A stretch of 64,000 nucleotides of DNA. Origin: Candidatus Chisholmbacteria bacterium (GTDB lineage: Bacteria > Patescibacteriota > Microgenomatia > UBA1400 > Chisholmbacteraceae). The notes under the pieces are model-generated. The model searched no databases. It saw nothing but the letters and a program-made list of their open reading frames with translations, and was not told where the DNA came from. Within the stretch, counting starts at the first letter, position 1, and every line of letters begins with the position of its first letter. A program made the position numbers and the translations under genes. Location of the stretch: NCBI GenBank assembly GCA_963704905.1, contig CAVPHZ010000001.1:579438-643437 (forward strand), given 5' to 3'. This document shows, piece by piece, positions 22,380 to 50,688 of the stretch.

Positions 22380-22411
22380 ACATCTTTTTTTTCCTAAGGT
22401 AGAATTTTCTT

Positions 22412-24497: not shown

Positions 24498-24527
24498 TTG
24501 ACACTGTATCCACAACCTGTTTACATT
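24498..24527 (+). promoter_or_regulatory. Candidate promoter for giant gene 2: TTGACA (24498-24503), 18-nt spacer, TACATT (24522-24527).
   Basis: Read from 'cttgacactgtatccacaacctgtttacattgtac'. The -35 hexamer is perfect and the -10 is weak. It is followed by an SD-led mini-uORF at 24545-24565. Confidence 0.2.
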
Positions 24528-24585
24528 GTACTACCAGAGGAAAAATGGCTGAAAGGCCACATTAGAAATATAGCTTGCCTGCCCA

Positions 24586-27500
24586 ATGAAGTCGCAAAAA
24601 CGACGAGTAAAGCGTTTAAACAATGCTTTTTACTACTTCATACAGAGAATTGATGCTGTATCATTAAAGCGTCAATTAAAAAGTTTCAAACACATAAGAG
24701 ATAGGTTTAGAGATCGACCTAGTCCTTCGAATGATCGTGAAGTTCAGGTTGGAGACCATTCACAAACGCCACCAGATGTATTAGATCAATCTACTCGAGA
24801 AAAAGAGATTGTAAATATAGCGTGGCGTGACCCAGGCGTAAGCGTCGATGAATTAGCAGACAAAATACGCCTCCGCCAATGGGGTCATGACATTACAAAT
24901 GACCTGGTCTATCAGACCCTTCTTGCATACGGGATTGCTGAAAAAGAGCACCGTCTGCGTTGGGCCCAGGACCATCAATACGACTTCACTGAGGCATGGA
25001 ATGCCCTTATTCCTACTGCAAAGCGAAAAACTACCACTGGGAAGCTTTCAGCTCAAGAGCGATTAGCCATTATTCGCCGTGTAGAGCAGGGAGAACCCGT
25101 TGATCAAGTCTGTGCAAGTGTTGGAGTTTCTCGAACACTCTTTTATAAATGGAAGAAGCGGTATGACACGGTAAAGACTGAGGCATGGAAACGTACCTTT
25201 GGATTTACCCGTGGCACATTGGATGAGCGAGAGCTCTTAGCGGTTCTGGAATCCCAGCCAGCAAGCAAGCCGGTCGTCTATGGCGGGCAGGCAACAGCGG
25301 AGCAGGTACGTGCAGTTCTGGAAACGGTGGTGAAGAACCCTGACTGGGGTGTGGGAAAGATTTACAAGCATTTGCCAAAGGAAGATGGGAAACCCATCAT
25401 CGGACGTCATGGTGTACAGAAGATTTTGGAGCGGGAGAATCTTCGCAGCATAGAAGAGAGACGATATTGGGTGAGTACCCAACCAAAGAAAGGGTCGACC
25501 GAAGATACACAAATTATCAAGCTTGCATGGCAGGATCCGGGTCTTTCGGTTGAGGATTTGGTTGACAAAATACGCCTCCGCCAATGGGGTCATGACATTA
25601 CAAATGACCTGGTCTATCAGACCCTTCTTGCATACGGGATTGCTGAAAAAGAGCACCGTCTGCGTTGGGCCCAGGACCATCAATACGACTTCACTGAGGC
25701 ATGGAATGCCCTTATTCCTACTGCAAAGCGAAAAACTACCACTGGGAAGCTTTCAGCTCAAGAGCGATTAGCCATTATTCGCCGTGTAGAGCAGGGAGAA
25801 CCCGTTGATCAAGTCTGTGCAAGTGTTGGAGTTTCTCGAACACTCTTTTATAAATGGAAGAAGCGGTATGACACGGTAAAGACTGAGGCATGGAAACGTA
25901 CCTTTGGATTTACCCGTGGCACATTGGATGAGCGAGAGCTCTTAGCGGTTCTGGAATCCCAGCCAGCAAGCAAGCCGGTCGTCTATGGCGGGCAGGCAAC
26001 AGCGGAGCAGGTACGTGCAGTTCTGGAAACGGTGGTGAAGAACCCTGACTGGGGTGTGGGAAAGATTTACAAGCATTTGCCAAAGGAAGATGGGAAACCC
26101 ATCATCGGACGTCATGGTGTACAGAAGATTTTGGAGCGGGAGAACTTGAATACATTTACCAAACGACAGAGCTGGATATCTTCGCAGCCGGCATTTGCTC
26201 CAGAACCAACAGGCGTTCGACCAGAACTTTCTTGGCAAGACAGGATTAAACTTGCGACTGACGAGTTCATACCATCGCGGGCTCCGGCTCCTCCACCAGG
26301 CCAATCAGCACTCTTGTATTACTTCAGTTTTTACTCTCCCTATCTCTTCATTGCACTCTTTGTATTCACAGGACTTTTCGGATTCGGCTATCTCTTAGGC
26401 CACGCTCAGGACAGCAGCCAAGCAATTGGTTGGTTCTTTGCATCGGTTGCGCTTACCATGGGTGCGTTTTTCTTCCTCTACTCAATGAAGTACTACCTGA
26501 CGTTGGCCATCGTGCTCTCGTATACTCGTGAGGGGTCGGTTCCATTTGAATCCGAACGAGACACCGCGCGTGAAGGTACACTTATCGAACGGTTGTTCGG
26601 CTTATCTTTGCGAAAAGAATCAGGTGAAGAACATCTTGGTGAACTTCCTCGGAAGGCGGGAGGATTAGAACCTAATGTCGATGAAATTCATTTAGAACGG
26701 TATCCGTTTATTTCCGTACATTTACCAATGTACAACGAGAAGCATGTGGCGGAGAGACTTCTTCGGGCTGCTACGTCATTTGATTATCCTGCGTATGAAG
26801 TCATCGTTGCGGATGATAGTACCGATGAAACCAAAGACATTGTGATGCGGTTTGCCGATCATTGGAATAAAAACAAAAAGCCTGGACAGCCAGTGGTCAA
26901 AATATCACATCGAGAGACTCGAGCCGGATACAAGGGAGCAGCACTTCAACTTGCACTTCAACGGACTGATCAACGAGCAGAGTTTGTTACGATTTTTGAC
27001 GCGGACTTTGTTCCCTATCCTGACTCGTTGACATTGTTTGTGAAGTACTTTAAGCACTCGGCTGGGACGCTTGACTATCAAAGTGAGAAGTTCCAAGTCA
27101 GGCAGGCTCATAAGAGTGGTGCAAAATCTGAATGGAGCGTGGATGTCGATGAGAAGACGCGAGTGGCTGCTGTTCAAGGATATCAATGGCATGTACTTAA
27201 TAAGAGTGAGAACTGGGTTACTCGTGGTGTACGAACGGAGTATTCAGGCTCATATGTTATAGAGCGAAGTGGTGAGGAGTTGTATGGAGGGATGAAGCAG
27301 ATCTCCGGCTCGGTGTATATGATCCGACGAGATTTACTGGAGCGGTTTGGCTGGGGAACGTCGATCACTGAAGACTTTGAGATGACCTTGCGTCTCTATG
27401 AGGCTGGATACAGAGTTGTGTATACACCATACATCCAAGCACCGTCAGAGTGTGTGTCGACCTTGAAGCGATTATTTCGACAGCGTATGCGATGGGCTGA

Positions 27501-30500
27501 GGGCCATAGTTTTAATGTGAAGAAACGCTTCTGGCCGCTCATGACATCTGATAACTTGACAAAAAATGAGAAGTTCGAGTTTCTCTATCTCACTCCCTAC
27601 TATTTACAAGCTGCCTTTTTCCTGATTGGAACGATCAGTTGGCTTCTTTCTGAAACTCTATTTGCCGCTCGACTGCCATTTTGGACGACGGTGTGGGGCT
27701 GGTCACTGGTGTTCACCAACATGCTTTCTTTGCCGCTGATGAATGGCATTGGGCTATTTTTGGAAGAGGCCGAGGAACGTGACTTTTTAGGACTGTTTTC
27801 ATTTGTGCTGCTTTCCTACCTCTTGGTACCTTTTCAGGCCTACGCGTCGGTAAAGGGTTTTGTGCAAGATGAGGAGGGACCTTGGTTCCGGACACCAAAG
27901 AGCGGTAAGGTGACTGATATCCTGCGGCGGGGAAAATTTGCACGATTCTTACGCTACATTCTTCAACAGCAGTTTGCGTCTGCGAAGATGCAAGGGCGCT
28001 TGAGAGAAGGAGCGCTCGCTGCGTACCCTGTTCCAGCTTTTGCTATGGCACGGTCTTCAGCAAAACTGCCGATCGGAGGGTTTAGCATTAAACGAAGGCA
28101 GGCAAGATGGATAGGAAAACTGGTCATCAGTTTCATGCTGATTTTGACAACAACCCTGGTATCGTTTGCGCCTTATGTGCAGTCGCTTTCTAGTGTTGGG
28201 TTGCCGCCAACTGGATCAGGGGTGATTCTTAGTCCTGATATGTCATCTAAAGATAAACCTGTACCTACAAGTGAACGACGATCGAGTATTTCCCTTCCCA
28301 ATTTTGTGAATGAAGCGTTTGCTGCTGAAGAAGAGGGTGATGTTCTCGTGGTTGAGTATACGGGCGGTGTTCGAGTAACCAGTCCAAAGCATGACTTTAG
28401 CCGGGCAGAGACACCGCAGTTTGTGGTGGAAAGAAATGAGCCGTTCCTGCAGAACCTCTGGAAGGGTGTAAGACGCCTGTTTGGGAGAGCTGATGATACC
28501 GGAATGCAAATCAGACTTCGGGATAGTAAAGGTCAAGCTGTTGAAGATTTTGAAACCTCTGGGATGGGAGAGGATGTTTTTGATGTGAGATTGCCAACCG
28601 AGCTGCAGTATAAGCCTGGGAAATATCAGCTAGTGGTTGAGTATGACGGGAAAACCATAGAGCAGGACTTTACTTGGGGCGTGCTGGCGGTCAATACCAA
28701 TAAGTCGATTTATTTACCCGGTGATAGCGCTCAGTTGAGTATGGCAGTTTTGGATGATGAAGGGCGGATGGTCTGCAATGCGGACGTTACCCTGAAGGTT
28801 TCATTCCCATCCGGCGAGGTAGCGTATCGATCAACTGACGATGGGACGATTCAGGTGAACCGAGGTTGCTTGAAGCGGGAGATGATCTTGGAACCTGATT
28901 ATGAGACAGAGATAGAGGTAGGTGGAGTTGGTGTGTACCAGATGGAATTGACCGCAAAAACATTGGATGGTGAGCGTAAGGTTTATGATTCATTTGAAGT
29001 GAAAGAATCAGTCCTGTTTGATGTAGAACGAGATAGTGCGACTAGGATTTATCCTAAGGAAATTTATCCAGTAACTATAAACATTACTGCGAACCAAAAT
29101 TTTACTGGTCAGGTTATCGAGACAGTTCCAGAGGGATTTCGAATCGCAGAGAATGAAGAGTACAGATTACAACAACTTGAGAATGGAAGAACTGAGATCA
29201 TCTGGGATGTTGACTGGCGGACGGGTGATCAGGTGACGATTGCGTATCCTTATAACGCTCCTAATCGTAGTCCGGATTTTTATCTTGTAGGTCCACTACG
29301 AATTGAGAATAACGGTGAAGAAGTGTTTTCTGAAGCTCGTCGATGGCAGATTGCGGCTGACTGGACTACTGAGATTCCTCACACGAGCTTATTTACCGAA
29401 ACCGATGATACCGGAGCCAATACGACGGTCGATGTGTATGAGGACGTTGATAATACTACGATTTCGCATGCAACATTGAATGGTGACGGATTTGGTGATA
29501 CAGAACAAGTGTTACTGATTGCTAACGTCAACTTCGATGGGAACGATGCTAACGCGGTCTATGGATTTCGGATTGCCGATACGGCTGGGAATCCCGTTGC
29601 TAACACAACAGTTCGCAGGGAAGTGCGTACGGCTGACGACAGGCAAGAAATACAACGGATTATGACACGCACAAATAAGGTATCGGGTGAGGGATTTGTA
29701 CTGCAAAAAGCCTTCCATACAGCGGGACAAACGACACCGAACATTTTAAAAGCATCGATTGTCGTTTTGGGACTCGGGAATCTTACCGAAAATGTTGACT
29801 ATGTTTATGATGATGATACCTCTACGACAGCGCTTTCAACGACAGCGGCAACCTTTGCAACCATTACTACGCCAGCGAGTGATAACCGCTGGCAAGGGGA
29901 TGTCTTGGTGATGGACCATTGGAAGGCAGACGGGAATACAACCAGTCAGTCACTTCAGCACGGATTACGACGGGATACTGATTCATTGGTGAATATTACA
30001 AGACAAGAAGGCGAAGATTCGAACGATCTCTATGGAGGCGGTTCGATTTACGTGTACAACAACGCCGATACCAGCGCGCATACCTATGACGTGCGGATGT
30101 ACACCTCGGCTGGCACTAGTTTTTCCCATAACTACAGTTCGATTATCGCCTTCCGGGCGAGCTTGTTTGAGGATTTTGAGTGGAACAATACCGATACGGA
30201 AAGCATTCCTGGAGATACCAATTTCAATGAAATGGCAGGGATTACTCCATTCAGCCCGCAAAATAGCGGGGAATTTGTGGTGATGGGATTTGCGGTTGGG
30301 GAGAGCAACGCTGTTGCTAATAGCGATGATGTTCGAATTCGGCTACAGGTCGACGGGACGAATGTGCCTTCCGGATATGATGATAGCACGAATGGAACAA
30401 TGCTTGAGGACCCAGACGATCTGTATGGAATTAACTTGGCATCTTTGGAGACCTTCGATACATCATCGAAAGATATCGATATGGATGCTGCAACTGATGT

Positions 30501-42500: not shown

Positions 42501-45500
42501 CAGCGGATATGAGCTGTTGGTGCAACTGAAGAGCGGAGTAGCAAGCGGGTCTACGGTTTTTGACCCCAATGGAACGGTGACGACCAATGCAACGGGTGGA
42601 GATTTCCATATCGACGATAACGCAACGGCGTTTTTGGATACAGCCACGAATACGATTGGGAGGGATATCGAAATTGACGGGGGAGCCAGGCTTAATATAA
42701 ATGGTAGTACGGATGTGAATGGTGGAGACATCACGCTTTCCGGCTCGAGTCCGAGAGTCGACACAACTGCGGGGACACCAACGGTGACCATGAGCAGTAC
42801 CGGGACAATCGGAGGGGGAACGACGCCAACGATTGCGTTCTACAATTTGGCTACTTCCGGGAGTGGAACAACTACTATTAGTAATACGGCAACAGTGAAT
42901 AATGATGTCTCAGTTGGAGCAGGCACTACCTTGCGTGTGAATGCCAACTTGAATGTTGACGGTGGTGATCTAACTACGACAACCACCGGATCGATAGACC
43001 ATACATCAGGGACACCAACCATTGATATTGATGGCACGGGCATACTTGGCGGAGGAAGTGGATCGATTACGTTTTATAATCTTGATTTGGGAGATGGGAC
43101 AAGTGATACAACCACGCTGGCGAGCACCATAACAGTAGATAATCAAATTACTATTAACAGTGATCAGACATTCACGGTTGGGAGTAACTCTGTAAATGTT
43201 GGGAGCGGATCAGTAACAGACAGCGGGACAATCAGCGTTGCGTCAAGTGGAGTGTTTAACCAGAGTGGAGGGACGACGACAGTTACGAGCTCTGATGGTT
43301 CGACTGCTCCAACTTTAGGAGGAGCTGGAACGACAACATTTTATAACTTTACTCTGGGATCTACTTCTGATGCGCGAACTTACACATTTGACGCCACCGG
43401 AGATATTACAGTTTCAAATAACATAACACTTACAGATCCAGGGATTGGAGATAGTCACAATCTTGATGTACAAGGAAACGATGTTGATGTAGGGAGTGGA
43501 TCAGTTACTGATTCCGGATCGATTACTGTTCCCAGTCGATCTCGTTATATTCAAGGTACCTCAGGTACAACCACAATACATTCATCAGATAATTCAACGG
43601 CACCAATTCTCGGAGGTGCAGGTGATACTACTTTCTATAATTTAATAATAGGTAATACATCAGACGCGCTTACAATTACAGTTGATTTCTCAGGAAGTAT
43701 TGAAGTGCTAAACGGTTTAATTGTTACTGATCCCGGAGTTGGTGATATTCATACATTGGACGCCTTGGGAAATGATTTGACTGTGGGATCTAGTGGGGCG
43801 ACTGATTCTGGGGATATTATTGTCGCTTTGAATGCAGTATTCACTCAGAGTTCCAGTGGGACAACCACTGTTTCATCAAGTGATACTTCGACAGCACCTC
43901 TCTTGGGGGGAGGAGGGACGACAACGTTCTATACGTTAAATGTCGGTTCGACAACAGCTGACAATTTAACCTATACATTTTCCACAGCTGGAAATATTAC
44001 CGTTAGCAATGTACTGACCATCCAAGATGCTGGAGGAGCTGATACACATACATTGAGCGCCTCGGATGATACTGTCACTTTGACTGGAACAGGGACGCCG
44101 TTTGTGGTGGATAGCAATGCGAGTTTTACCGAGTCAACTTCGACAGTAAACTACATTGGGGATGGGTCAACGAATGTTGCAGCAGAGGGCTACTATAATC
44201 TGGAGATTGGGAATAGTGCTAGTCTTGGAACGGGGAGAACCTATACTTCGCAGACCGGAACTATCACTGCTAGTAATAATCTGCTAGTTGGAGCCCCTTC
44301 AGGAAGTTTCACCCATCTTTTTGAGGTAAATACCAACGATACTACGATTACTGTGAGCGCTGATGTTGAGATTACAGCACTCGGAAGTTTTTCCGCATCA
44401 AGTAACACTGCCAATCCTTTGACCATTGGCGATGACCTCACCAACAATGGTACTTTCACCCACAACTCCGGGCGGATTGTGTTTAATGACTCCGGGAACA
44501 CGTCTACTCTTCTGTATGCTGGCAACACCACCTTTGGTGCCTTTGATGTCACCTCTGCCAGTAAGGCTATGGCATTTGACAGTGCTGATCAGACCATCAT
44601 TACTGGGACACTGACTATCAATGGTACTGCCTGCGGTACTCCCATTACCCTTTCTTCTGCCACCGGCGGCAACCAATGGGATGTTGATGCTCAAGGAAGT
44701 GTGAGTGTTGATTATGTCACTCTTACTGACAGCAATGCGATCACAGCTGTCTCTGCTACCAACAGCACCAGCGGAGGCAACAACAGCAACTGGACGATTA
44801 GCGGAGGAACTTGTGCTGATAACTGGGAAGGGATTGCTTACACCAATGATGATGAAGCCACCCCACTCTCAGCTGTCTCTGTGTGCGCGGTGGTCAATAG
44901 TGGAACACCGGTGTGTGAGAACACCAATGGGAGTGGCGTGTTTACCATTGTTTCCCAGGATGCCAGTGCCACTGACCAACTCACCTTCTTTGTTGACGGT
45001 GGCGCGACCTTCGGAAACACCACCACCATCAGTGATGGTGGAGACATCACTACTGGTGATAACCTGCGCCTCTACGAAGATCATGTGACCCTGCGGCATG
45101 AACAAGGAACCGATATCTCGATTGTTGACCTTGATGCCTATGACAATGATCAGAACAGCACCGACATGCTCTATGATGCTGAAGACCTGGCTACGGACAC
45201 CCTTGTCATAGAATCTGGCTATGAACTGTTTATCTACAACAGTTACACCTTTGACGCTGATGGAACGGTGACTACCCAAGGAGCTGGTGGGAACCTGCAA
45301 GTTGATAACAGTGCCACTGCCATTCTGGATACCACCTCCAACACCATTGCTAGTGACCTGATCATTGACTCGGGAGCCACCTGTACTCTCAATGGAGATA
45401 CTTCCATTAATGGAGGAGATATCACTATGAGTGGAACCAGCCCAGTTCTCAATACTACTGCAGGAACACCAACCGTGACCATGAGTTCAACAGGCTCCAT

Positions 45501-48500
45501 TGATGGAGGAACCACGCCAAGCATTACCTTCTATGACTTAGCAACAACAGGAACAGGAACTACCACCATTGCCAACGCAACAACGGTGAACAACGATGTC
45601 TCTGTTGGAACAGGAACCACTCTAAGAGTGAATGCCAACCTGAACATTGATGGTGGAGATCTGACTACGACAACCACAGGAAGTATTGATTACACATCAG
45701 GAACACCAACGGTTGATATTGATGGAACAGGAACTCTGGGAGGCGGGTCAGGATCCATCACTTTCTATACCCTCGACCTGGGAGATGGGACGACTGATAC
45801 TACGACGCTTTCATCTGACATGGCAGCAGATAACCAGGTGACCGTGAACACTGGACAGACGTTCTCCAATGCCTCAAGCAACGTAACCGTGGGAAGCTCA
45901 AGTGTTACAGACTCAGGGAGTATCACTGTGAGTGGTGTGTATAGTCAAGCGGGGGGGATAACCCGAGTCCAATCCTCTGATACATCAACAGTGCCAGTGA
46001 TAGGAGGCTCAGGAACTACTACTTTCTATAACCTAGCGGTAGGAACTGCATCAGACGCTTTAACCTACACGTTTGATTTAGCTAGTGATATCACAGCGAC
46101 TAACGATGTACAAATCACAGATGGAGGGGTGAGTGATACTCATACGCTGGATACAACTGGGAGCAATTTTGATATTGATGTAGGAGGGGATTGGATCAAT
46201 GATGAGGGTACAAGCGGTTTTACCGCTAATGCTTCAACGGTAACATTTACTGGTGTTACTTCTACCCAGCAGGTGTCTGGAACCTCGAGTTTTTATAACT
46301 TCACGGCAACCTTCGGGTCGGGTGCTATAGAGTTTGAACAGAGTCAGACACAGACCATTCTTACCGGTGGAGTGTTCACTATCGCCGGAACAAGCTGTAT
46401 TGATTACATTGATCTCTGGTCACAGTCACCGAGCACGGCTTGGAATATCAATCTGGTTGGCGCTGCTACAGCAAGCGTAAGCTATGTTCGGGTTACTGAT
46501 TCAAATGCAAGTGGAAACCCAATGACTGCGAATAACTCTCATAATGGAGGCGGAAATACTAATTGGACGATTGTGGTTGGTGAGTGTACTGGAACGTCAT
46601 CGTCTCCAACCGCAACTGGATTTTCTTTCCAGAGGAAAACATTTTTTGACAATGTGAACGCGCGGTATTGGTTGTTCTCACATAATGGCAGTGAAATTGA
46701 TATTCGTTATTCAACTGATGATGGTGGAACATGGAATACGGTTGCCGCGCTCTCTTATGATACTAATGACTTTTCTGTGTGGTGGGATCAGATTGGATCA
46801 ACGGAATATGTTTGGCTGGCGGTAGCCAATAACAATGACATTGTCGTAAGACAAGGTTCGCTTGGTCTTTCATCAATAACATGGGATGTGGATGAGTCTG
46901 TTGCCCTTGATGGCACAGGGGCGAGTGATACTTACTCGTATGCTTACCTTAGTATGGATAGCGCTGATTATCTTTGGGTAGGAGCGCGGCATTATGACGG
47001 TACGAATTATCATTATCTCACTGCTGCCACTCATGAGGGAGGTGGTTCGCAGACTGCTGACAGCGATCCATCAACTTGGACTTGGACAGGGGTGCCGCAT
47101 CAACTCACCGATGATCAAGCCAACACTAATGTATATGGTAATGTCGTTGCTTTAAACAACCAAGACATGTATGCAACCTTTGTGACCAATACATCGCTTC
47201 AGGGATGCTGGTGGGATGATAGCGATGGGAAGTGGGAAGACAATAGTGGCAGTTTATGCTCAGTTGTTGGTGATCCTACTATTGAACAACAGATCAACAT
47301 TATTGATCAGGAATATTCGACGACAGGAACGGATCAGCCTGGCAATAATAGTTTGGGGTTGGTTGCTTTTGACTCAGCAGATTACACTGGTGATACGGTC
47401 TATTTTGAGGCGATTATCCGTTGTGATAGTTGCACTGGTGGAAATACTGAGGTTGACGTGGCGCTGGTTGATGATACCAGCACAACGACGGTGACGACTG
47501 TAAGTAGTACATCTTCAACATATACAAGAGTTCGGAGTGGTTCGATATCTCCTACGGCTGATGAATATACTGTCGAAGTCACTCGGGACGCAACAGCAGG
47601 AACTGCCTATGTAAAAGCAGCGAGATTGCTCATTGTGCAAACGAGTGCAACCGATATTGACGATACTGTCAGTATGGTGGAGCTTGGCAACAATGATGCG
47701 ATGTTTGGGGCGCGAGTTCAGAGAGGGGCAACTACGATTTCTGCTGGGAGCGCAAGTGCTAATGCTACGCTCGGGCAGAGTGTCGATATAAGCCGTTCAT
47801 TTGCGATCTGCAGTCCTGGAGAATCTGGTGATACGGCACCAAATTCAATTACGTTTAGCTGCACGCTTTCGAGCAGTCAGCTCACATTTACTCGATATGG
47901 AAGTACTGGGACAGCTGCTTTACTCATAGAGTGGCAGGTAGTTGAGTACGACAATATCAGTGTTCAGACTGGGACAGAGACGTTTAATACCGCCTCAACT
48001 CAGGAGAATTTTACGAGTGGAGAAGGGATGACGGCAGTCCGGCTTGATAAGACATTTGTTGTTCTGACTGCGAGAAGTGATGGGACAAGTTTGAATGATA
48101 ATAATGACCGTTATGTTTCGCCAAATCTTACATCGACTACTAATTTACAACTCTCAAGAAATGCAACTAGCACAAATGTAACAGTAGATTTTTTCATTGT
48201 TGAATTCTTGGATGATACCTACGTTGAGCAATGGTCAGGGTTGACGATTCCTGACGCTGGAAGCACTGATGACTCAGCTAATCTCAGTGGAAGATCTGGG
48301 TCAGGCGTCGACACATCAAGATCATTTGCATTAGGTTATCAACGAGGGAGTTCGACTGATGACCAGGGGATGGATGCGAATACCATGACGCTTGAACTGA
48401 TTGATGCTGATACTGTTCGAGCTACGAGAACTGGATCGACATCAGGGTATGGAAATATGGAGGTTGAAGGTTGGGTGGTCGAGCTTCCGCAAGAGGGAAG

Positions 48501-50064
48501 TGGAGATACAGGTTCGAATGTTGAGACGTTATCGACTGGGGACTGGACATCATGTGGTGTGGATTTAACCCTCACTGATCGAGTTGATGTCAACCGGTCG
48601 TTTGTGTGGGGAACGACTCGAGATTCTGGGGGTGGACAAGCGTATGATCGAGCCGAGGCTTCGTTCCAATTGACAAATGAAAACACAGCTAGGGTGGATT
48701 GTGTAGACCCAGCAAATACCGACGCCTTTACTGGATTTGCTGTGATGTTCCCGGATTGGCGAGATGTGAGTGATCAAAAGATCTATCAGTTTGAATCTAC
48801 TGACTTTACATCTGGTTCTCTGACTACCTATTTTGAAGCAACGCTGGCATCAAGTGAATCAACCGCCTCAGCTCAAGCTAGGCTCTACAACATCACAGAT
48901 AATGAAGCAGTATCAGGGAGTACAGTAACCGTTTCCGGAACTACATGGGATAGGCAGCGGAGCAGTGCATTGACGATTGGTGCGTCGGCTGGAAATTTGC
49001 AAAGTGGAGATGAGTACATCGTGCAGCTTTCTTACGAATCGGGAGTTGAAACACAGGCAGCAAACGCGAAGCTAGTTTTAGAGCAAGATGGTGGAGGATC
49101 TGGTTTAACAACAACAGAGATTATTCATCAGTACAACAACACTCTGGCTACAGACAATGACAGTACGTATACGGCACAGAACTTTGATAATGAGTTTAAT
49201 CTTCAAGATTTTGATGGGGGAGATTTCGCTGGCTATTTTGAAACGACGATACAGACGAATAACCCGAGCAATGCTTACTATGCTCGGCTTGATATACCTG
49301 CTGGTGAAAGGACAGCAAGTGATGTTGAGTACACAAGATCTCGAAGTGCTGATGTTTGGTCAAGCTTACCAGGCAGTGCAACTGATATTGATATTGAGCT
49401 GCGGAATGCATCAACCTCTACCACCTCATCTTCAAATTCCTGGATGGTGATTGAAGTTACGAATCTTGGAAATCTGAGTGGAGGAAACCAAGACGTTATC
49501 GATAGTGTTCCAACGGGTCTAGCTAATAATTTCTCAACTGTGGTTGATACAACCAATTACGATGTCCATCTTTTGTATGTTGATGATGAGGCAACTGACC
49601 AGGTTTCCTATCGGCGCTGGAATAATTCAGTTACCCCGAGTTGGGATGCATCTGCAGTTAATCTTGATGCTTCAAATGATGATGCGTACGTAACGCTCTC
49701 ATTGGATTATGATGCTGGAGACCTGTATGCAATATGGATAGATACTGCAACGGGTTATATTTACTATCGTCAATGTGACGTGCCAATTGGACCAGCGGAT
49801 TGTTCAGCTGCAGGGAATTGGCAGAGTGAGGTAGCTTGGCAAACTGATGGGACGAGTACAAATATTTCAAGTAATTATTCAGGAGGCACGCACATATTCG
49901 CAACTTGGACCCGAGGAGCTAGTGATCCCTACACAGTAATGTGGGATATTATCTTAATTCCTGAGCAACTGTGGTTGTTTATAGGAGTAGCACCAATACT
50001 ACCACTGTTACTTAAGCGTCTTAGGGAAAAGAAAGCATATGCAAAAGTTAGAAACCAGACATAA
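24586..50064 (+). CDS. Giant (8492 aa) multi-domain surface protein. Domain order: N-terminal duplicated transposase-like HTH module; TM helices; processive family-2 glycosyltransferase domain; TM helices; ~7000-aa repetitive extracellular region; C-terminal sorting-signal-like TM tail.
   Basis: A single uninterrupted ORF of 25.5 kb. The GT2 region has 'ISVHLPMYNEK' (the first Asp), 'FDADFV' (D-x-D), 'ITEDFEMTLRL' (ED) and 'QRMRWAEGHSF' (Q-x-x-R-W). Hydrophobic helices flank the GT2 domain. The downstream Thr/Gly/Asn/Ser-rich repeats are typical of beta-helical fibres. The ORF ends '...WDIILIPEQLWLFIGVAPILPLLLKRLREKKAYAKVRNQT*'. Confidence 0.8.
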   Translation: MKSQKRRVKRLNNAFYYFIQRIDAVSLKRQLKSFKHIRDRFRDRPSPSNDREVQVGDHSQTPPDVLDQSTREKEIVNIAWRDPGVSVDELADKIRLRQWGHDITNDLVYQTLLAYGIAEKEHRLRWAQDHQYDFTEAWNALIPTAKRKTTTGKLSAQERLAIIRRVEQGEPVDQVCASVGVSRTLFYKWKKRYDTVKTEAWKRTFGFTRGTLDERELLAVLESQPASKPVVYGGQATAEQVRAVLETVVKNPDWGVGKIYKHLPKEDGKPIIGRHGVQKILERENLRSIEERRYWVSTQPKKGSTEDTQIIKLAWQDPGLSVEDLVDKIRLRQWGHDITNDLVYQTLLAYGIAEKEHRLRWAQDHQYDFTEAWNALIPTAKRKTTTGKLSAQERLAIIRRVEQGEPVDQVCASVGVSRTLFYKWKKRYDTVKTEAWKRTFGFTRGTLDERELLAVLESQPASKPVVYGGQATAEQVRAVLETVVKNPDWGVGKIYKHLPKEDGKPIIGRHGVQKILERENLNTFTKRQSWISSQPAFAPEPTGVRPELSWQDRIKLATDEFIPSRAPAPPPGQSALLYYFSFYSPYLFIALFVFTGLFGFGYLLGHAQDSSQAIGWFFASVALTMGAFFFLYSMKYYLTLAIVLSYTREGSVPFESERDTAREGTLIERLFGLSLRKESGEEHLGELPRKAGGLEPNVDEIHLERYPFISVHLPMYNEKHVAERLLRAATSFDYPAYEVIVADDSTDETKDIVMRFADHWNKNKKPGQPVVKISHRETRAGYKGAALQLALQRTDQRAEFVTIFDADFVPYPDSLTLFVKYFKHSAGTLDYQSEKFQVRQAHKSGAKSEWSVDVDEKTRVAAVQGYQWHVLNKSENWVTRGVRTEYSGSYVIERSGEELYGGMKQISGSVYMIRRDLLERFGWGTSITEDFEMTLRLYEAGYRVVYTPYIQAPSECVSTLKRLFRQRMRWAEGHSFNVKKRFWPLMTSDNLTKNEKFEFLYLTPYYLQAAFFLIGTISWLLSETLFAARLPFWTTVWGWSLVFTNMLSLPLMNGIGLFLEEAEERDFLGLFSFVLLSYLLVPFQAYASVKGFVQDEEGPWFRTPKSGKVTDILRRGKFARFLRYILQQQFASAKMQGRLREGALAAYPVPAFAMARSSAKLPIGGFSIKRRQARWIGKLVISFMLILTTTLVSFAPYVQSLSSVGLPPTGSGVILSPDMSSKDKPVPTSERRSSISLPNFVNEAFAAEEEGDVLVVEYTGGVRVTSPKHDFSRAETPQFVVERNEPFLQNLWKGVRRLFGRADDTGMQIRLRDSKGQAVEDFETSGMGEDVFDVRLPTELQYKPGKYQLVVEYDGKTIEQDFTWGVLAVNTNKSIYLPGDSAQLSMAVLDDEGRMVCNADVTLKVSFPSGEVAYRSTDDGTIQVNRGCLKREMILEPDYETEIEVGGVGVYQMELTAKTLDGERKVYDSFEVKESVLFDVERDSATRIYPKEIYPVTINITANQNFTGQVIETVPEGFRIAENEEYRLQQLENGRTEIIWDVDWRTGDQVTIAYPYNAPNRSPDFYLVGPLRIENNGEEVFSEARRWQIAADWTTEIPHTSLFTETDDTGANTTVDVYEDVDNTTISHATLNGDGFGDTEQVLLIANVNFDGNDANAVYGFRIADTAGNPVANTTVRREVRTADDRQEIQRIMTRTNKVSGEGFVLQKAFHTAGQTTPNILKASIVVLGLGNLTENVDYVYDDDTSTTALSTTAATFATITTPASDNRWQGDVLVMDHWKADGNTTSQSLQHGLRRDTDSLVNITRQEGEDSNDLYGGGSIYVYNNADTSAHTYDVRMYTSAGTSFSHNYSSIIAFRASLFEDFEWNNTDTESIPGDTNFNEMAGITPFSPQNSGEFVVMGFAVGESNAVANSDDVRIRLQVDGTNVPSGYDDSTNGTMLEDPDDLYGINLASLETFDTSSKDIDMDAATDVTTVGFSYRTLVAFSMGLAPTISISGSCDQYDRSTDCVDDGSNEIRVAVDGVLQGQSDTVVDGAWSITGVPTPAGGAVITVFINGETTASERATTVTEYSGVGNITAVPLYQRHLVIGSDQDQTTTNTDLQQYDYSASGNDVDVIYDVNNATNDLTVDNLGSYSDETLLILSGDTYIPDSGSSGNVATHDFETSGTVTADGNAFTVSGSWDNNSVFTANTSTVSMTATSGTETIDSTGASTAAFNTLNLGSGSGTATWNIGSALDVDGALTIDWGTLDMNGANNINLANNLTINANGNYTSGTGTVTFDGSGTNTWTDNRATKANMGTVSINGTSKTINFGSSVTAASVNVAGSQTLGLGSSGYTLTLTGTGTPFTVTGTLDEGTDSTVVYTGNGVTTIVAETYDNLSVHPGGTVTHTLAAGTFNINGDFSVGDGTNTGTIQANTNDPAITISGSMTINANATYEAASLVANDLTIGNDFTNNGTFTHNSGSIVFNDASNTSTLLYSGTTTFGTFEVTTDSKAIEFDNVDQTTIVDAFTINGQACGTKITINSDTGAAQFEIQTSGATVSVTYADIQYSNALTAMSATNSANSGNNTGWTITEDTCASMSLSGNVYNFGTSTALTECDASGATFELRLRIQTTTYSASCSNTDGSYTFTGISIPTVGDGMVLWIDDAEVPETDGALVVRFDGVQPSPNNTFYDDAVTVTSDDTNPVDILHMNVYDNGQDSDIPYTATDASPDTLVVNSGYEFLVQLKSGVASGSTVFQPNGTVTTNATGGDFHIDDNATAFLDTDTNTIGRDILIDGGARLNIDGDTNVNGGDITMSGTSPRIDTTAGTPTVTMTSTGSIGGGTTPTTTFHNLATTGTGTTTVTNSTTTNGDVTVGTGTTFTVNADLTVNGGDFTNTTTGVINTTSGTPTVTMSGTGNLGGGSGSVTLFDLTTSGSGTTTIASTVTTNNDVSVGAGTTLRINNNLNIDGGDLTTTSTGIIDYTSGIPTVDLDGTGTLGGGSGSITLYTLDLGDTTTDTTTLSSTIAADNQIIINTNQTFTVGSNNVTVGSSSVTDSGNISNSGTYTQTGGTTTIQSSDTSTAPTIGGSGTSTFNNLDIGPTTADNLTYTFNTAGDITVSNLLTIQDAGGADTHTLDGQNDTISLPASGTPFVVDSNAVFSANTSTVSYTGTSATSVASTTYYTLNIGTTANSSTLTYTLLGDTGVDNVLTIGASSGTGVHTLDASSFSLTMGGAGTPLVINSQGLFDESTSTVNFTGDGATTVNARAYYNLEIGNDGSLGAGRTYTSAAGTITIASNLAVGAPTGSFTHIFDVNTNDTTITVSDSVTITSLGNYSASSNVSNPLTIANDFTNNGTFTHNSGLVVFDTAANISTLTYSGNTTFNDLSMTTVGKPMSFDAAQQTIIAGTFTITGASCGNLTPLSSETSGNQWDIDIQGSAAVTFVYITDSNAITSASASNSTDGGNNTGWNISKGSCASSVTGEVAIYREDTGLEDVSDTTQFDHQWDTIVTEGASFDLNDTGGSPDYASVDLADAGHYLVLYNAGWQRVDTTDTRTETQAWIDLAGTDIQYGRSTCYIRSSGNANECWQSGAAIINATAGQDIKIEGQRTDSSTFTQERTAQEAGLQLIKLDDTWGYARIHENTGGQSFNTNGGYDAVTWDDNTDELDAGFFAHSSSTNSEEITLKLDGHYLVSANVMLQSDSTTYRRNRDMRLTLGDGTTQTEIEGTRVTSYMRGSNGAQDHVASFVGIINASAGDVLELEIGCIRNEDTTNSCAGVTNIGNQSGITIAKLPDSADYVRIHDDAVQDIDDATPAPILWEDSGEEEEDAGSFSHSGGSSQVNIDYSSSADYLFFSNQYADRTSDTNGTRAYPHWNWRTSGSSTLQYGSFGKYNRGDNGSTGTWTSGNSGGAILLGLTSSDYVETLNTEEANGATDTAGEFQVNRSAIQGVNLNTLLQAFIDITGTCDQYDRSTDCVDDGSNEIRVAFDGVLQTSLDSAVDGAWQISGLTAPSTGAVMTVFINGETTASERATAVTTYSGSGSVGSVTLYQRHLTIGSDQDQEVTNTNLQQYDYSASGNDVDVIYDVADATNDLTVDNLGNYTDEVLLVLAGDTYRPDSASSGNVATHDLETSGTVTADGNTFTVSGSWDNNDVFTANTSTVTMTATSGTESIDSSGASTATFNTLNLGSGSGTATWNMGSALDVDGALTIDWGTLDMNGANNITLANNLTINSNGSYTKGTSTITFDGSGTNTWTDNNSTKVDMGAVSINGSSKIINLGSSVNATSVDVAASQTLGLASSGYSLTLLGSGTAGSRPFIVSGNLDEGTNSLVTYAGTAATDIQAETYHDLTLAPSAAGGPSFRLGTASSQTIDVDGDLVVGDGTNAVTILANTFDPTINLAEDLTLNANSTWTKSPTATLTFNSTTTPVTWTDNNSTKQDIGIVSIDGPKEVDLGTSVTATTINVTGGDTLDLQSLGYVLQITGSGTGGSRPLIVAGTLSEGIDSLVEFVGTSATDIEAEIYHDLEADQSGTTFTAFGNIEASGVLTIQNGTYDGSSFTTTLSGTGTPFVINDTFTPSTSTISYTGNGATTITSTTYYTLSVGTSNSANITYSAGGALVVNNQLNLQSAAATFNNTLSVGANDLTVGLSGVTNSGGISVPLRSSLTQSASATTSIRSSSGGSASIGGDGSIQFFNLTFDPSVASAPTFTLGNGASQTIDVDRNLTVGNGTNPVIIQWETNDPTLTVGGNLLLSNNSTWTKSTTATLTFDGATTPVTWTDNNGTKQDLGDVSIDGPKEVDIGGSVTATSVDVTGGDTLDLQSLGYTLSLTGTGTPFTVGGTLSEGTDSTVRYIGNGSTNITAETYDKLSIHPGGTVTHTIQTGTLTVNGDLSIGDGSNTGTIEANTNDPTITVAGSMTINANGIYQASSNTLNPLTIGDDFTNNGTFTHNSGRIVFNDSGNTSTLLYAGNTTFGAFDVTSASKAMAFDSADQTIITGALTINGAACGTPITLSSATGGNQWDVDAQGSVSVDYVTLTDSNAITAVSATNSTSGGNNSNWTIDGGTCADNWEGIAYTNDDEATPLSAVSVCAVVNSGTPVCETTNGSGVFTIVSQDASATDQLTFFVDGGVDVGNTVTISDGGDITTGDNLRLYEDHVTLRHEQGTDISIVDLDAYDNDQNSTDMLYDAEDLATDTLVIESGYELFIYNSYTFDADGTVTTQGAGGNLQVDNSATAILDTTSNTIASDLIIDSGATCTINGDTSINGGDITMSGTSPVLNTTAGTPTVTMSSTGSIDGGTTPSITFYDLATTGTGTTTIANATTVNNDVSVGTGTTLRVNANLNIDGGDLTTTTTGSIDYTSGTPTVDIDGTGTLGGGSGSITFYTLDLGDGTTDTTTLSSNISVDNSITVNASQTLNISSNDVTVGSSSVTDSGSINVSGIYSQSGGTTTVQSSDTSTAPVIGGSGTSTFYNLDIGPSTADNLTYTFDTASDINVSSILTIQDAGGADTHTLDVQNDTVTLFGSGTPFVVDSNAIFNENTSTVSYTGASATNVTAETYYNLNIGTTANSSNVTYTLAGDTTVSNILTIGASSGTGTHTLDGSNRTVMLSGTGTPLVINSQGDYEESTSTVNYTGDGATNVTVNGYYHLEIGNNGSLGADRTYTSAGGTVTVGGNLTVGAPSGVRTHTLEVNTNDTTVAITGSLAITTLGIYSASSNTANPLTIGNDFTNNGTFTHNSGRIIFNDVSQTSTLLYSGTTIFSTFEVTTAGKFMEFDNVDQTTITAAVTIDGQGCGSLVEINSDTGAAQFEIQTSGATVSIDRARIQWSNALTAMTANDSKDGGNNTGWTINEGACADMEVTGFVYDFGTSTALTECDGSGATFELRLRVLTTTYSASCSAADGSYTFSGVVIPSTGDGLVVWIDDVEAPETDGALVTRFDGTKPSSDNVFYDDAVTVTSDDTNPADIIDMDVYDNGDDSDIPYSATDAATDTLVVNSGYELLVQLKSGVASGSTVFDPNGTVTTNATGGDFHIDDNATAFLDTATNTIGRDIEIDGGARLNINGSTDVNGGDITLSGSSPRVDTTAGTPTVTMSSTGTIGGGTTPTIAFYNLATSGSGTTTISNTATVNNDVSVGAGTTLRVNANLNVDGGDLTTTTTGSIDHTSGTPTIDIDGTGILGGGSGSITFYNLDLGDGTSDTTTLASTITVDNQITINSDQTFTVGSNSVNVGSGSVTDSGTISVASSGVFNQSGGTTTVTSSDGSTAPTLGGAGTTTFYNFTLGSTSDARTYTFDATGDITVSNNITLTDPGIGDSHNLDVQGNDVDVGSGSVTDSGSITVPSRSRYIQGTSGTTTIHSSDNSTAPILGGAGDTTFYNLIIGNTSDALTITVDFSGSIEVLNGLIVTDPGVGDIHTLDALGNDLTVGSSGATDSGDIIVALNAVFTQSSSGTTTVSSSDTSTAPLLGGGGTTTFYTLNVGSTTADNLTYTFSTAGNITVSNVLTIQDAGGADTHTLSASDDTVTLTGTGTPFVVDSNASFTESTSTVNYIGDGSTNVAAEGYYNLEIGNSASLGTGRTYTSQTGTITASNNLLVGAPSGSFTHLFEVNTNDTTITVSADVEITALGSFSASSNTANPLTIGDDLTNNGTFTHNSGRIVFNDSGNTSTLLYAGNTTFGAFDVTSASKAMAFDSADQTIITGTLTINGTACGTPITLSSATGGNQWDVDAQGSVSVDYVTLTDSNAITAVSATNSTSGGNNSNWTISGGTCADNWEGIAYTNDDEATPLSAVSVCAVVNSGTPVCENTNGSGVFTIVSQDASATDQLTFFVDGGATFGNTTTISDGGDITTGDNLRLYEDHVTLRHEQGTDISIVDLDAYDNDQNSTDMLYDAEDLATDTLVIESGYELFIYNSYTFDADGTVTTQGAGGNLQVDNSATAILDTTSNTIASDLIIDSGATCTLNGDTSINGGDITMSGTSPVLNTTAGTPTVTMSSTGSIDGGTTPSITFYDLATTGTGTTTIANATTVNNDVSVGTGTTLRVNANLNIDGGDLTTTTTGSIDYTSGTPTVDIDGTGTLGGGSGSITFYTLDLGDGTTDTTTLSSDMAADNQVTVNTGQTFSNASSNVTVGSSSVTDSGSITVSGVYSQAGGITRVQSSDTSTVPVIGGSGTTTFYNLAVGTASDALTYTFDLASDITATNDVQITDGGVSDTHTLDTTGSNFDIDVGGDWINDEGTSGFTANASTVTFTGVTSTQQVSGTSSFYNFTATFGSGAIEFEQSQTQTILTGGVFTIAGTSCIDYIDLWSQSPSTAWNINLVGAATASVSYVRVTDSNASGNPMTANNSHNGGGNTNWTIVVGECTGTSSSPTATGFSFQRKTFFDNVNARYWLFSHNGSEIDIRYSTDDGGTWNTVAALSYDTNDFSVWWDQIGSTEYVWLAVANNNDIVVRQGSLGLSSITWDVDESVALDGTGASDTYSYAYLSMDSADYLWVGARHYDGTNYHYLTAATHEGGGSQTADSDPSTWTWTGVPHQLTDDQANTNVYGNVVALNNQDMYATFVTNTSLQGCWWDDSDGKWEDNSGSLCSVVGDPTIEQQINIIDQEYSTTGTDQPGNNSLGLVAFDSADYTGDTVYFEAIIRCDSCTGGNTEVDVALVDDTSTTTVTTVSSTSSTYTRVRSGSISPTADEYTVEVTRDATAGTAYVKAARLLIVQTSATDIDDTVSMVELGNNDAMFGARVQRGATTISAGSASANATLGQSVDISRSFAICSPGESGDTAPNSITFSCTLSSSQLTFTRYGSTGTAALLIEWQVVEYDNISVQTGTETFNTASTQENFTSGEGMTAVRLDKTFVVLTARSDGTSLNDNNDRYVSPNLTSTTNLQLSRNATSTNVTVDFFIVEFLDDTYVEQWSGLTIPDAGSTDDSANLSGRSGSGVDTSRSFALGYQRGSSTDDQGMDANTMTLELIDADTVRATRTGSTSGYGNMEVEGWVVELPQEGSGDTGSNVETLSTGDWTSCGVDLTLTDRVDVNRSFVWGTTRDSGGGQAYDRAEASFQLTNENTARVDCVDPANTDAFTGFAVMFPDWRDVSDQKIYQFESTDFTSGSLTTYFEATLASSESTASAQARLYNITDNEAVSGSTVTVSGTTWDRQRSSALTIGASAGNLQSGDEYIVQLSYESGVETQAANAKLVLEQDGGGSGLTTTEIIHQYNNTLATDNDSTYTAQNFDNEFNLQDFDGGDFAGYFETTIQTNNPSNAYYARLDIPAGERTASDVEYTRSRSADVWSSLPGSATDIDIELRNASTSTTSSSNSWMVIEVTNLGNLSGGNQDVIDSVPTGLANNFSTVVDTTNYDVHLLYVDDEATDQVSYRRWNNSVTPSWDASAVNLDASNDDAYVTLSLDYDAGDLYAIWIDTATGYIYYRQCDVPIGPADCSAAGNWQSEVAWQTDGTSTNISSNYSGGTHIFATWTRGASDPYTVMWDIILIPEQLWLFIGVAPILPLLLKRLREKKAYAKVRNQT
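24859..25439 (+). repeat. Copy A of a 581-bp 100 % identical core inside a 705-bp in-frame tandem duplication (the unit encodes 235 aa of an HTH-HTH DNA-binding module).
   Basis: Line-by-line comparison of 24859-25439 with 25564-26144 shows identity at every checked position. The offset of 705 equals 3 x 235. Antisense ORFs 25237..25683 and 25942..26304 share an identical 64-aa tail, confirming the identity. Confidence 0.85.
25564..26144 (+). repeat. Copy B of the 581-bp identical core of the 705-bp tandem duplication.
   Basis: See copy A. The flanks of the two units are diverged: WRDPGVSVDELADKIRL vs WQDPGLSVEDLVDKIRL at the 5' side, and ERENLRSIEERRYWVSTQ vs ERENLNTFTKRQSWISSQ at the 3' side. 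Confidence 0.85.
26683..27513 (+). other. Family-2 glycosyltransferase (GT2) catalytic domain of the giant protein, processive synthase type (cellulose/chitin/hyaluronan-synthase-like motif set).
   Basis: The motifs 'VHLPMYNEKHVAERLL...YEVIVADDSTDETKDIV', 'TIFDADFVPYPDS', 'GTSITEDFEMTLRLYEAGYRVVY' and 'QRMRWAEGHSF' are read directly from the translation. Confidence 0.7.
39290..40720 (+). repeat. Copy 1 of a ~1.43-kb near-identical intragenic direct repeat. Copy 2 lies 5097 bp downstream.
   Basis: The translations are nearly identical ('NPLTIGDDFTNNGTFTHNSGRIVFNDSGNTSTLLYAGNTTFGAFDVTSASKAMAFD ... TLDLGDGTTDTTTLSS'). Three pairs of antisense ORFs (39741..39953 / 44838..45050, 39934..40203 / 44869..45300, 40146..40427 / 45243..45524) are identical. 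The first ~700 bp show a few percent divergence and the last ~735 bp only 2-3 differences. Confidence 0.8.
44387..45817 (+). repeat. Copy 2 of the ~1.43-kb near-identical intragenic direct repeat.
   Basis: See copy 1. The offset of 5097 equals 3 x 1699, so the repeat is in frame. Confidence 0.8.
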
Positions 50065-50112: not shown

Positions 50113-50688
50113 ATGAGTCAGAAGACAGTTTTTAAACGAATTTTGGCAATTACTTCCATCGTACTCGCATTGCTGCCAATGCTTGTGACTTTTGCGTCTC
50201 TGTTGACGAACTTATTTGACAGAATGGGGTGGTATGTTTGGCTTCAGCAAGTCATTGTACCGTTTGAGTCGAGGCTTGTGGCAATTCTTGTAAGACTGGT
50301 TGGAATTTCCGGCATGGTAACTCCAAATACTGAGCATTTTTCTATGGTTCTGCAAAAACCTGATAATGTGTTGTTACCAGTTCAACTTTCGTGGAATTGT
50401 CTGGGTTGGCAGAGTTTGTTGTTACTCGGTCTAACGCTCGTTACAGGATTACAGGGACCATATTCACGGTTTTCTAAACTCCAAGTGATAGTATTTGGAG
50501 TGCTGGGAACATTTCTCAGTAACCTGGTTAGAATGGCGCTTATTACGTCGCTTGCGTACTATTGGAATACGTTTGCAGCAATGATTATTCATGATTATTT
50601 TGCGATGTTTGTTGCACTCGGGTGGATGATATTTTTCTGGTGGTTTTCGTATGCCTATGTGCTTGAAGATAGTCCCGTTGATCAGTAG
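50113..50688 (+). CDS. Small polytopic membrane protein resembling the exosortase/archaeosortase family (putative sorting transpeptidase).
   Basis: The 191-aa product has ~5-6 hydrophobic helices. A Cys sits in 'LSWNCLGWQSLLLL' (codon 50398-50400) and an Asn-x-x-Arg in 'LSNLVRMALI' (50521-50532), matching the recalled Cys / N-x-x-R active-site pattern of the exosortase family. A strong SD (GGAGAT) lies 4 nt before the ATG. The gene sits directly after a giant protein that ends in a tripartite sorting-signal-like tail. Confidence 0.45.
   Translation: MSQKTVFKRILAITSIVLALLPMLVTFASLLTNLFDRMGWYVWLQQVIVPFESRLVAILVRLVGISGMVTPNTEHFSMVLQKPDNVLLPVQLSWNCLGWQSLLLLGLTLVTGLQGPYSRFSKLQVIVFGVLGTFLSNLVRMALITSLAYYWNTFAAMIIHDYFAMFVALGWMIFFWWFSYAYVLEDSPVDQ

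Follow-up and report, generated by a model that had tools for sequence, protein, structure and literature searches.

The 64,000-nt window analysed here (the whole stretch of DNA, taken from contig CAVPHZ010000001.1 of a Candidatus Chisholmbacteria bacterium and free of N throughout) carries a giant open reading frame (ORF) at 24586..50064 on the plus strand, which starts with ATG, stays in one frame and encodes 8,492 amino acids (aa) with zero internal stops in both the ORF listing and the translation. The giant ORF is confirmed as a real single gene. From the frame and from Pfam, the protein comprises two helix-turn-helix (HTH) modules, two transmembrane (TM) helices, a family 2 glycosyltransferase (GT2) module, a TM cluster, a last TM helix, a 7,263-aa ectodomain and a C-terminal signal of the Pro-Glu (PE) type. 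The next gene (50113..50688, +), which begins 48 nt downstream of the giant ORF, encodes a 191-aa exosortase/archaeosortase-family protein. The initial annotation had described 24586..50064 as one gene joining a processive polysaccharide synthase to an extracellular fibre; the uninterrupted 8,492-aa frame and the layout bear this out, its coordinates and motifs (DAD, ED and QRMRW) are correct, and the domain order and topology that it inferred hold.

Hydropathy analysis places hydrophobic helices at aa 587-605, 613-631, 1009-1027, 1041-1059, 1067-1085, 1176-1194 and 8455-8473, and no TM helix within aa 1195-8454. A K/R-rich stretch precedes the helix at 1176-1194 and a K/R-rich tail follows that at 8455-8473. 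Since the HTH and GT domains are taken to be cytoplasmic, the loop before the last synthase helix is K/R-rich and the C-terminal tail is basic, the Thr-rich region between the two helices would lie outside the cell. Pfam recognizes no family in aa 1200-8492, where a sub-threshold match to MG2 is the sole result.

The catalytic domain of the GT2 module (26698..27585, +; aa ~705-1000), of the GT-A type, was delineated by Pfam, motif alignment, AlphaFold2 (AF2) modelling and Foldseek. Pfam assigns Glyco_tranf_2_3 to aa 709-972 and Glyco_trans_2_3 to aa 858-1041, and the scores for PF13641 (65.4 bits), PF13632 (68.8 bits) and PF00535 (60.1 bits) are above the cut-offs. The residues DD (743-744), DAD (805-807), TED (928-930) and QRMRW (966-970) are invariant in 54 of the 54 family members aligned (alignment A2). 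After the QRMRW interface helix comes a cluster of three hydrophobic helices (27610..27840, +; aa 1009-1085), identified by hydropathy, AF2 and Foldseek and presumed to be channel-forming or interface helices. The motif WFRTPK (27883..27900, +; aa 1100-1105) then occupies the cytoplasmic loop that leads to the last TM helix; it is invariant in A2 (columns W541-K546) and is kept in the relatives L080, L074 and L035 described below. The gating loop of the bacterial cellulose synthase BcsA bears the motif FxVTxK, which we take WFRTPK to resemble; the position of WFRTPK fits a gating loop and the predicted local distance difference test score (pLDDT) of the AF2 model is low there. The last synthase TM helix (28111..28167, +; aa 1176-1194) is preceded by the K/R-rich stretch IKRRQARWIGK and is presumed to act as a signal-anchor leading the chain outside. 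The AF2 model built on A2 has an overall pLDDT of 73.9 and a predicted template-modelling score (pTM) of 0.71, with pLDDT values of >90 in the GT core. Among PDB entries, its top Foldseek matches are BcsA (E = 2.6e-15), the Chlorella-virus hyaluronan synthase (HAS) CvHAS (target-normalised TM-score 0.55-0.61) and Xenopus XlHAS1, together with fungal and oomycete chitin synthases (Chs1/Chs2) and plant CesA; the highest target-normalised TM-score, 0.73, belongs to PcManGT, a compact archaeal mannosyltransferase. The likeness to processive synthases that had been proposed from motifs is thus supported by the model, which best matches BcsA, hyaluronan synthases and chitin synthases.

The GT2 module is preceded by an N-terminal TM hairpin (26311..26487, +; aa 576-634), seen in the hydropathy profile and as helices H14-46 and H51-90 of the AF2 model, which would bring the chain back to the cytoplasm before the GT2 domain. 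The two cytoplasmic HTH modules in tandem (24790..26241, +; aa ~69-303 and ~304-552) are like the N-terminal HTH_23/HTH_28/HTH_32 domains of transposases: Pfam finds HTH_23, HTH_28 and HTH_Tnp_1 in two copies each (~aa 154-195 and 389-430), and HTH Pfam domains are also listed for most homologues. A PDB sequence search with the HTH module gave no match. The two copies are 86% identical in amino acids over 249 aa and share 581 nt of 100% identical DNA (24859-25439 = 25564-26144) with diverged flanks, a pattern that indicates recent duplication, gene conversion or an assembly artefact.

Thr, Gly and Ser abound in the 7,263-aa ectodomain that separates the last synthase helix from the C-terminal helix; residues 2000-8000 contain 15-22% Thr and ~10-13% Ser, and Gly, Asp and Asn are abundant too. 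It opens with a fibre base (28369..29361, +; aa 1262-1592), which is also present in L074, L035, L080, L081, P0251 and P0261 and represents a module common to hundreds of surface proteins from Candidate Phyla Radiation (CPR) bacteria, mostly of the Peptidase_M23/MG2 type and of 500-1,385 aa. The repetitive core (30583..46485, +; aa ~2000-7300), rich in Thr, Gly, Ser, Asn and Asp, is predicted to be all-beta and solenoid-like. It is built of large segmental duplications with up to 95% amino-acid identity over 400 aa, and a period of 78-98 aa is weakly apparent. When aa 6001-6450 were modelled by AF2, with six paralogous segments as the alignment, the result contained short beta-strands only (pLDDT 70.9, with ~80-93 in model residues 1-220), and on this model a beta-solenoid-like fibre is plausible. 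The distal ectodomain (46486..49956, +; aa ~7301-8457) is Trp-rich and less repetitive. Homology to the C-terminal domain of L080 covers its final ~180 aa, and P0241 matches part of the stretch aa 7700-8492; a homologue search with that stretch gave 4 matches only. The sole LPPTG of the giant protein lies at 28201-28215 (aa 1206-1210), 12 residues past the last synthase helix, and no LPXTG occurs near the C-terminus. As a sortase site this LPPTG was rejected: L080, L074 and L035 do not conserve it and about 0.3 occurrences are expected by chance on a rough estimate, so that it is probably fortuitous.

The protein ends in a tripartite signal (49957..50064, +) composed of IPE (aa 8458-8460), a hydrophobic helix, a basic KRLREKK and a short tail before the stop. 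The end thus reads IPEQ-LWLFIGVAPILPLLL-KRLREKK; the giant terminates with ...LIPEQLWLFIGVAPILPLLLKRLREKK, and the tails of short relatives end, for example, with ...TIPENVLLILTVAPFIPMVVMWMKKRGK. The motif typical of the family consists of [IV]PE, a hydrophobic helix and KKRK, the C-terminal helix having conserved prolines (APxIP), and [IVLT]PE occurs within the last 70 aa in 76 of 89 homologue tails. A profile hidden Markov model (HMM) of this anchor, with 40 columns and built from 72 homologues, has a sole match among the 617 six-frame ORF segments of the window, namely the extreme C-terminus of the giant protein (E = 2e-4). When a tail HMM was run against the whole giant protein, compositional bias swamped the result, which became informative once the search was restricted to the C-terminal 330 aa or to the 40-aa anchor model. 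The same PE anchor ends the complete 1,229-aa protein P0242, which is without GT2, and also a number of short ORFs that lack GT2 and precede exosortase genes, and it thus behaves as a portable signal, not as a helix of the synthase.

The neighbouring 191-aa protein passes the exosortase/archaeosortase signature TIGR04178 (33.9 bits against a cut-off of 23), has weak matches to the ArtC and XrtG models and carries Cys96, Arg140 and His160, each of which is present in 85 of 86 exosortase sequences. Orthologues located directly after P0037 (L001) and P0079 (L002) are 40-43% identical to the window enzyme and also pass TIGR04178, with 30.5 and 42.2 bits. When the three exosortases were used as bait in GTDB species genomes, 77 loci were retrieved, mostly from Woese-, Gottesman-, Davies-, Curtiss-, Levy- and Chisholmbacteria and often several per genome. 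A GT2 ORF of the family stands immediately 5' of the exosortase in 41 bait-found loci with a readable upstream ORF, and these ORFs are mostly PE-anchored; complete ORFs upstream of exosortases range from 768 to 2,242 aa. A 4.9-kb Logan contig that matches the exosortase carries at least 1,425 aa of an ORF upstream of it, which agrees with the giant gene. Single genomes harbour three or four separate mini-exosortase loci, as in CAYHKY01 (L006, L035, L047, L073) and MGGC01 (L012, L032, L053), and the upstream targets in such genomes differ in length. The occurrence of several loci per genome points to a multi-copy family with variable ectodomains, reminiscent of surface-variation gene families.

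According to published work, 'dedicated' sorting systems are marked by consecutive genes for an enzyme and its single target (10.1101/2023.06.07.544157). For exosortase genes, the classical association is with exopolysaccharide loci (PMC1569441, Haft 2006). Archaeosortase A cuts such signals and its substrates end up lipid-anchored, and a 2018 review described exosortases as still without experimental analysis (PMC6098224). The exosortase gene at 50113..50688, recognized here by TIGR04178 and by its adjacency to GT2 genes of the family, had been overlooked in the initial annotation, which read the end of the giant protein as an anchor. A conserved signal does exist at the C-terminus; the static two-point anchor gives way, in view of the tripartite motif and the adjacent exosortase, to a probable substrate for sorting or processing. 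With the exosortase gene 48 nt downstream, the C-terminal 'anchor' most probably serves a dedicated exosortase system as a PEP-CTERM-like sorting signal.

The fusion of synthase and ectodomain was traced through the relatives of the giant protein. A word-indexed homologue search with the GT2 membrane module (aa 560-1250) yielded 1,917 relatives; the best 120 of these are 45-58% identical to the giant in local alignments over its N-terminal 1,194 aa and reach no more than 1,209 aa. Those among the best 120 that are named belong to Patescibacteria/Microgenomates, and nearly all have HTH and GT2 Pfam domains. According to BLAST, the short relatives are homologous to the N-terminal part as far as about aa 1194, where the last synthase helix ends, and then run on for 180-400 aa; in the 76 closest homologues the ectodomain measures 178-397 aa (median 210). 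The lengths of the best 120 suggested that the fusion was unique to the giant, and this idea was overturned by an exhaustive representative search with aa 700-1600, which gave 8,846 matches at E up to 1e-3 and 113 new representatives in the best 150. Among these 113, 68 have at least 1,500 aa, 31 at least 2,000 and six at least 3,000, the largest having 3,654 aa; GT2 is always N-terminal (~aa 400-900) and the C-terminal anchor is present in 60. At E up to 1e-30, the family has 1,622 representatives.

Several relatives bridge the junction between the GT2 module and the fibre. L074 (Woesebacteria, 1,533 aa) aligns with aa 378-1592 of the giant in one high-scoring segment pair at 39% identity, P0251 (3,023 aa) and P0261 (3,509 aa) likewise align in one stretch over the junction, and in L035 (1,442 aa) a separate alignment places the fibre base behind the GT2 module. 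Metagenome contigs were scanned with the junction peptide, which brought up L080 (contig Ga0209542_10011465, from another metagenome), a diverged relative whose ORF leaves the contig end after at least 4,121 aa. L080 matches the GT2 core HMM at 5e-162 and resembles the giant at the junction (48% identity over giant aa 880-1592), in the fibre repeats (34%) and in the C-terminal domain (42%); its anchor reads IVIPERLWLLFGAAPLIPLMLRRRRRA. Since L080 shares the junction, the repeats and the C-terminal end, a hidden stop or frameshift is very unlikely. Such an interruption between synthase and fibre had been named beforehand as what would overthrow the fusion, and it is contradicted by the single-stretch alignments of L074, L080, P0251 and P0261. 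Because the N- and C-termini of the giant both match the two ends of one family, it is the middle that has been expanded in the giant.

The fusion is therefore the rule in the HTH-GT2 family, and the gene in the window is the largest member seen in these sequence searches. The comparison with related GT2 synthases that had been proposed as a check on conservation places the ectodomain at the same position family-wide. The notion of a unique synthase-fibre chimera falls with it: every family member has an ectodomain, and the giant is the extreme of a size continuum that begins at ~180 aa. In public annotations, members appear as 'glycosyltransferase', 'hypothetical' or 'cellulose synthase/PNAG synthase-like glycosyltransferase/transposase'. 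Many contigs with the Patescibacteria-type cassette (L006-L008, L011, L019, L024, L044 and others; P0028 and P0103) are titled 'uncultured Gammaproteobacteria', 'Candidatus Bathyarchaeia archaeon', 'Nevskiaceae' or 'Dormiibacterota', and these oddly titled records look like mis-binned or mislabelled metagenome-assembled genomes.

Further genes for envelope functions surround the pair. A sortase-family gene (51187..51801, +; 204 aa) matches Pfam Sortase and scores above the TIGR01076 cut-off, and no link between it and the giant protein is inferred. Three multi-TM proteins (51849-53927, 55649-56884 and 56959-59163, all +) have homologues, at 27-38% identity, encoded after the exosortase in L001 and L002, for which reason they are probably further components of the cassette; they have no Pfam match at E up to 1 and no NCBIfam match. 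A MerR-type gene (54235-54747, -) lies among them. Downstream are a GT2-like ORF (59482-60183, +), an NAD-dependent epimerase/dehydratase gene (60267-61196, -) and a GT4 glycosyltransferase gene (61633-62862, +). The locus is a cell-envelope glycan locus. On the 5' side of the giant gene, 22380-24585 is a 2.2-kb AT-rich region (GC ~0.38 compared with ~0.47 in the flanks) with no ORF of >70 aa and no tRNA, which may be a large regulatory or promoter region. A second giant ORF (2-14050, +), of at least 4,682 aa, leaves the window at the 5' end; Thr, Gly, Asp, Asn and Ala are abundant in its product, Lys makes up only 0.1%, there is neither a TM helix nor a Pfam match, and BLAST does not relate it to the 8,492-aa protein. 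Behind it lie a 654-aa ORF (14022-15986, +) with a compositionally similar C-terminal part and a 1,239-aa ORF (16107-19826, +) with Gly_rich_2 (PF21722) and one hydrophobic segment at about aa 1145. PF21722 is also found in P0143, P0204 and P0243, which share modules with the ectodomain of the giant.

Each part of this architecture has known counterparts. Like BcsA, class I HAS, PgaC/IcaA, NodC and chitin synthases, the giant has a GT-A domain between TM segments and the motifs D, DxD, TED and QxxRW, and it shares with BcsA-type synthases a QRMRW-type interface helix and a conserved cytoplasmic loop followed by another TM helix. Unlike them, it has an N-terminal HTH of the transposase type, no PilZ and no recognized partner of the BcsB or PgaD type, and its gating-type loop is followed by a single TM helix, the ectodomain (180 to >7,000 aa in the family) and the sorting-type signal. 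CPR bacteria are not known to possess an outer membrane. In this respect, and in the pairing of an exosortase with a GT2 enzyme, the cassette recalls the XrtG system of Gram-positive bacteria (TIGR03110 with the GT2 family TIGR03111); its scores against these two models, however, are far below the cut-offs (16.6 against 102.75 and 21.1 against 363.95), and to our knowledge the XrtG-system glycosyltransferase has not been described as bearing a sorting signal or a large ectodomain.

The cassette shares with the PEP-CTERM/exosortase and PGF-CTERM/archaeosortase systems (PMC1569441, PMC6098224) the enzyme signature, the Cys/Arg/His residues and a target that ends in a Pro-Glu motif, a TM helix and a basic stretch; the enzyme is encoded beside its target, as in the 'dedicated' systems, and glycan-biosynthesis genes occur in the locus. 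It differs from them in its minimal enzyme (158-191 aa), which falls in no named subfamily, in a signal outside the curated models, in its CPR host and in a substrate that would be a polytopic glycan synthase rather than a secreted protein bearing a signal peptide. The giant proteins of Omnitrophota (10.1101/2023.11.21.568195) are likewise very long and mostly extracellular, come from ultra-small, probably host-associated bacteria and are likely to function in attachment; the protein described here differs from them in having neither a SecA-DEAD domain nor numerous internal TM helices, and in possessing a synthase foot and a sorting signal. The preprint on the Omnitrophota giant genes mentions neither a glycosyltransferase nor an exosortase (10.1101/2023.11.21.568195), and a full-text literature search found no paper joining exosortases with CPR, Patescibacteria or Microgenomates. 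The components are thus all of known kinds, and a processive-type synthase that is its own dedicated exosortase target and has a hypervariable ectodomain appears to be undescribed in the literature searched.

We consider it probable that the giant ORF is a genuine gene of a Patescibacteria (Microgenomates-type) genome and the largest found in a widespread family of two-gene cassettes that act by synthesis, extrusion and cleavage. Gene 1 encodes, in this order, the cytoplasmic HTH modules, a GT2 synthase like BcsA and hyaluronan synthase, the last TM helix, a variable ectodomain and the PEP-CTERM-like signal; gene 2, directly downstream, encodes the minimal exosortase/archaeosortase-family enzyme. 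The GT2 domain may polymerise a glycan from a cytoplasmic nucleotide sugar and extrude it through its own TM channel. Export of the ectodomain would produce a giant loop held by the last synthase helix at one end and by the C-terminal helix at the other, which would place it directly above the channel exit. The dedicated exosortase is proposed to cut at IPE and to move the freed C-terminus to a lipid or glycan acceptor, and the fibre would stay tethered to the synthase by its N-terminal end.

Several observations weigh against this proposal. The window protein falls far short of the curated equivalog cut-offs for processive synthases, with 85 against 422 bits for PgaC_IcaA, 61 against 699 for CelA and 31 against 550 for NodC; such scores place it in a distinct branch of the processive-synthase fold, and judged by these sequence models for PgaC, BcsA and NodC the glycan product is not predictable. 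The GT domain and the last helix are separated by three hydrophobic helices, whereas the chain must cross the membrane an even number of times there. A fold search of the PDB with the fibre model gave no significant match (E >=0.16), the best matches being the beta-helix proteins fucoidan lyase, Ag43, EspP, tailspikes and VacA p55. On the side of the sorting system, the C-terminal 60 aa match no sorting-signal model in NCBIfam at E up to 1 (PEP-CTERM, PGF-CTERM, PEF-CTERM and others), and the exosortase, like its two orthologues, fits the generic signature only, with XrtG, ArtC, XrtM and other named models far below cut-off. No precedent was found in the literature for an exosortase cutting the C-terminus of a polytopic enzyme. 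The near-identical internal repeats could be mis-assembled, which makes the repeat copy number and the exact length of the protein uncertain: a 1.4-kb direct repeat in the fibre (39300-40720 and 44397-45817) has 90-100% identity, and its longest stretch without a mismatch is 428 nt. The two copies lie 5,097 nt, or 1,699 codons, apart, an offset that, being divisible by three, lets the reading frame survive a mis-assembly of copy number.

BcsA has two TM helices after its gating loop. The giant has one after the WFRTPK loop, and its C-terminal helix could be the second; it may be, then, that this helix is never cleaved and is a permanent TM helix of the synthase, like one of the last pair in BcsA, that the ectodomain is an insertion in the final extracellular loop, and that the small downstream protein is a non-proteolytic partner or acts on other substrates. 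The conserved prolines of APxIP would suit a packed helix, and the silence of the curated sorting-signal models agrees with such a role. We nevertheless regard this explanation as unlikely. The motif, helix and basic tail also end P0242 and short ORFs upstream of exosortases, none of which has a GT2 domain, and the retention of Cys, Arg and His in 85 of 86 exosortases argues for catalysis; moreover, the tripartite layout and the adjacency of the genes fit the published features of dedicated systems (10.1101/2023.06.07.544157).

A somewhat less likely explanation concerns the product of the synthase rather than the fate of its C-terminus. The GT2 domain may make a polyprenyl-phosphate sugar or a short glycan, with which the multi-TM neighbours would O-glycosylate the Thr/Ser-rich fibre, the fusion coupling donor supply to substrate. 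In its favour are the Thr and Ser contents of the ectodomain (15-22% and ~10-13%), the three conserved multi-TM proteins and the GT4, GT2-like and epimerase genes downstream, the top target-normalised TM-score of PcManGT (0.73) and the far-too-low NCBIfam scores for processive synthases. The QRMRW and TED motifs, the helices after the GT domain and a gating-type loop are hallmarks of processive, channel-forming GT2 enzymes, however, and the giant has QRMRW, TED, conserved post-GT helices and the WFRTPK loop; its best fold-search E-values, too, are to BcsA and HAS. Finally, it is very improbable that the giant ORF is an artefact in which adjacent synthase and fibre genes were joined through a frameshift or the loss of a stop, or the length was inflated by repeat mis-assembly, as the perfect 581-nt HTH duplication, the 1.4-kb fibre repeat of 90-100% identity and the ceiling of 1,209 aa among the best 120 homologues of the word-indexed search might suggest, because the junction is kept in independent genomes and contigs (L074, L035, L080, P0251 and P0261), both termini of the giant come from one family, many complete relatives have 2,000-3,654 aa, the repeat offset is divisible by three and the objection bears on the exact number of repeats only, not on the fusion.

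The preferred reading of a synthase cleaved by its own exosortase can be carried one step further, to a proposal that we hold to be speculative and rather doubtful. The cassette would then be a self-contained machine for glycan-protein conjugation, in which the exosortase joins the C-terminus of the fibre to the nascent polysaccharide or lipid primer emerging from the channel of the same polypeptide. If true, this would provide the first concrete exosortase acceptor and a physical explanation of the link between exosortases and exopolysaccharides, and the paralogous ectodomains (180 to >7,000 aa) would be interchangeable modules for the surface and host contact of CPR cells.

The presence of a synthase and an exosortase substrate in one polypeptide, with the enzyme encoded next door, offers a minimal two-gene system in which to address cleavage, acceptor and glycan product. 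From the giant member it is evident that an ectodomain of more than 7,000 aa can be accommodated at this position. The surfaces of CPR bacteria are poorly understood and their cells are thought to be mostly episymbiotic, and the family described here is a plausible major determinant of their surface and of their contact with the host.

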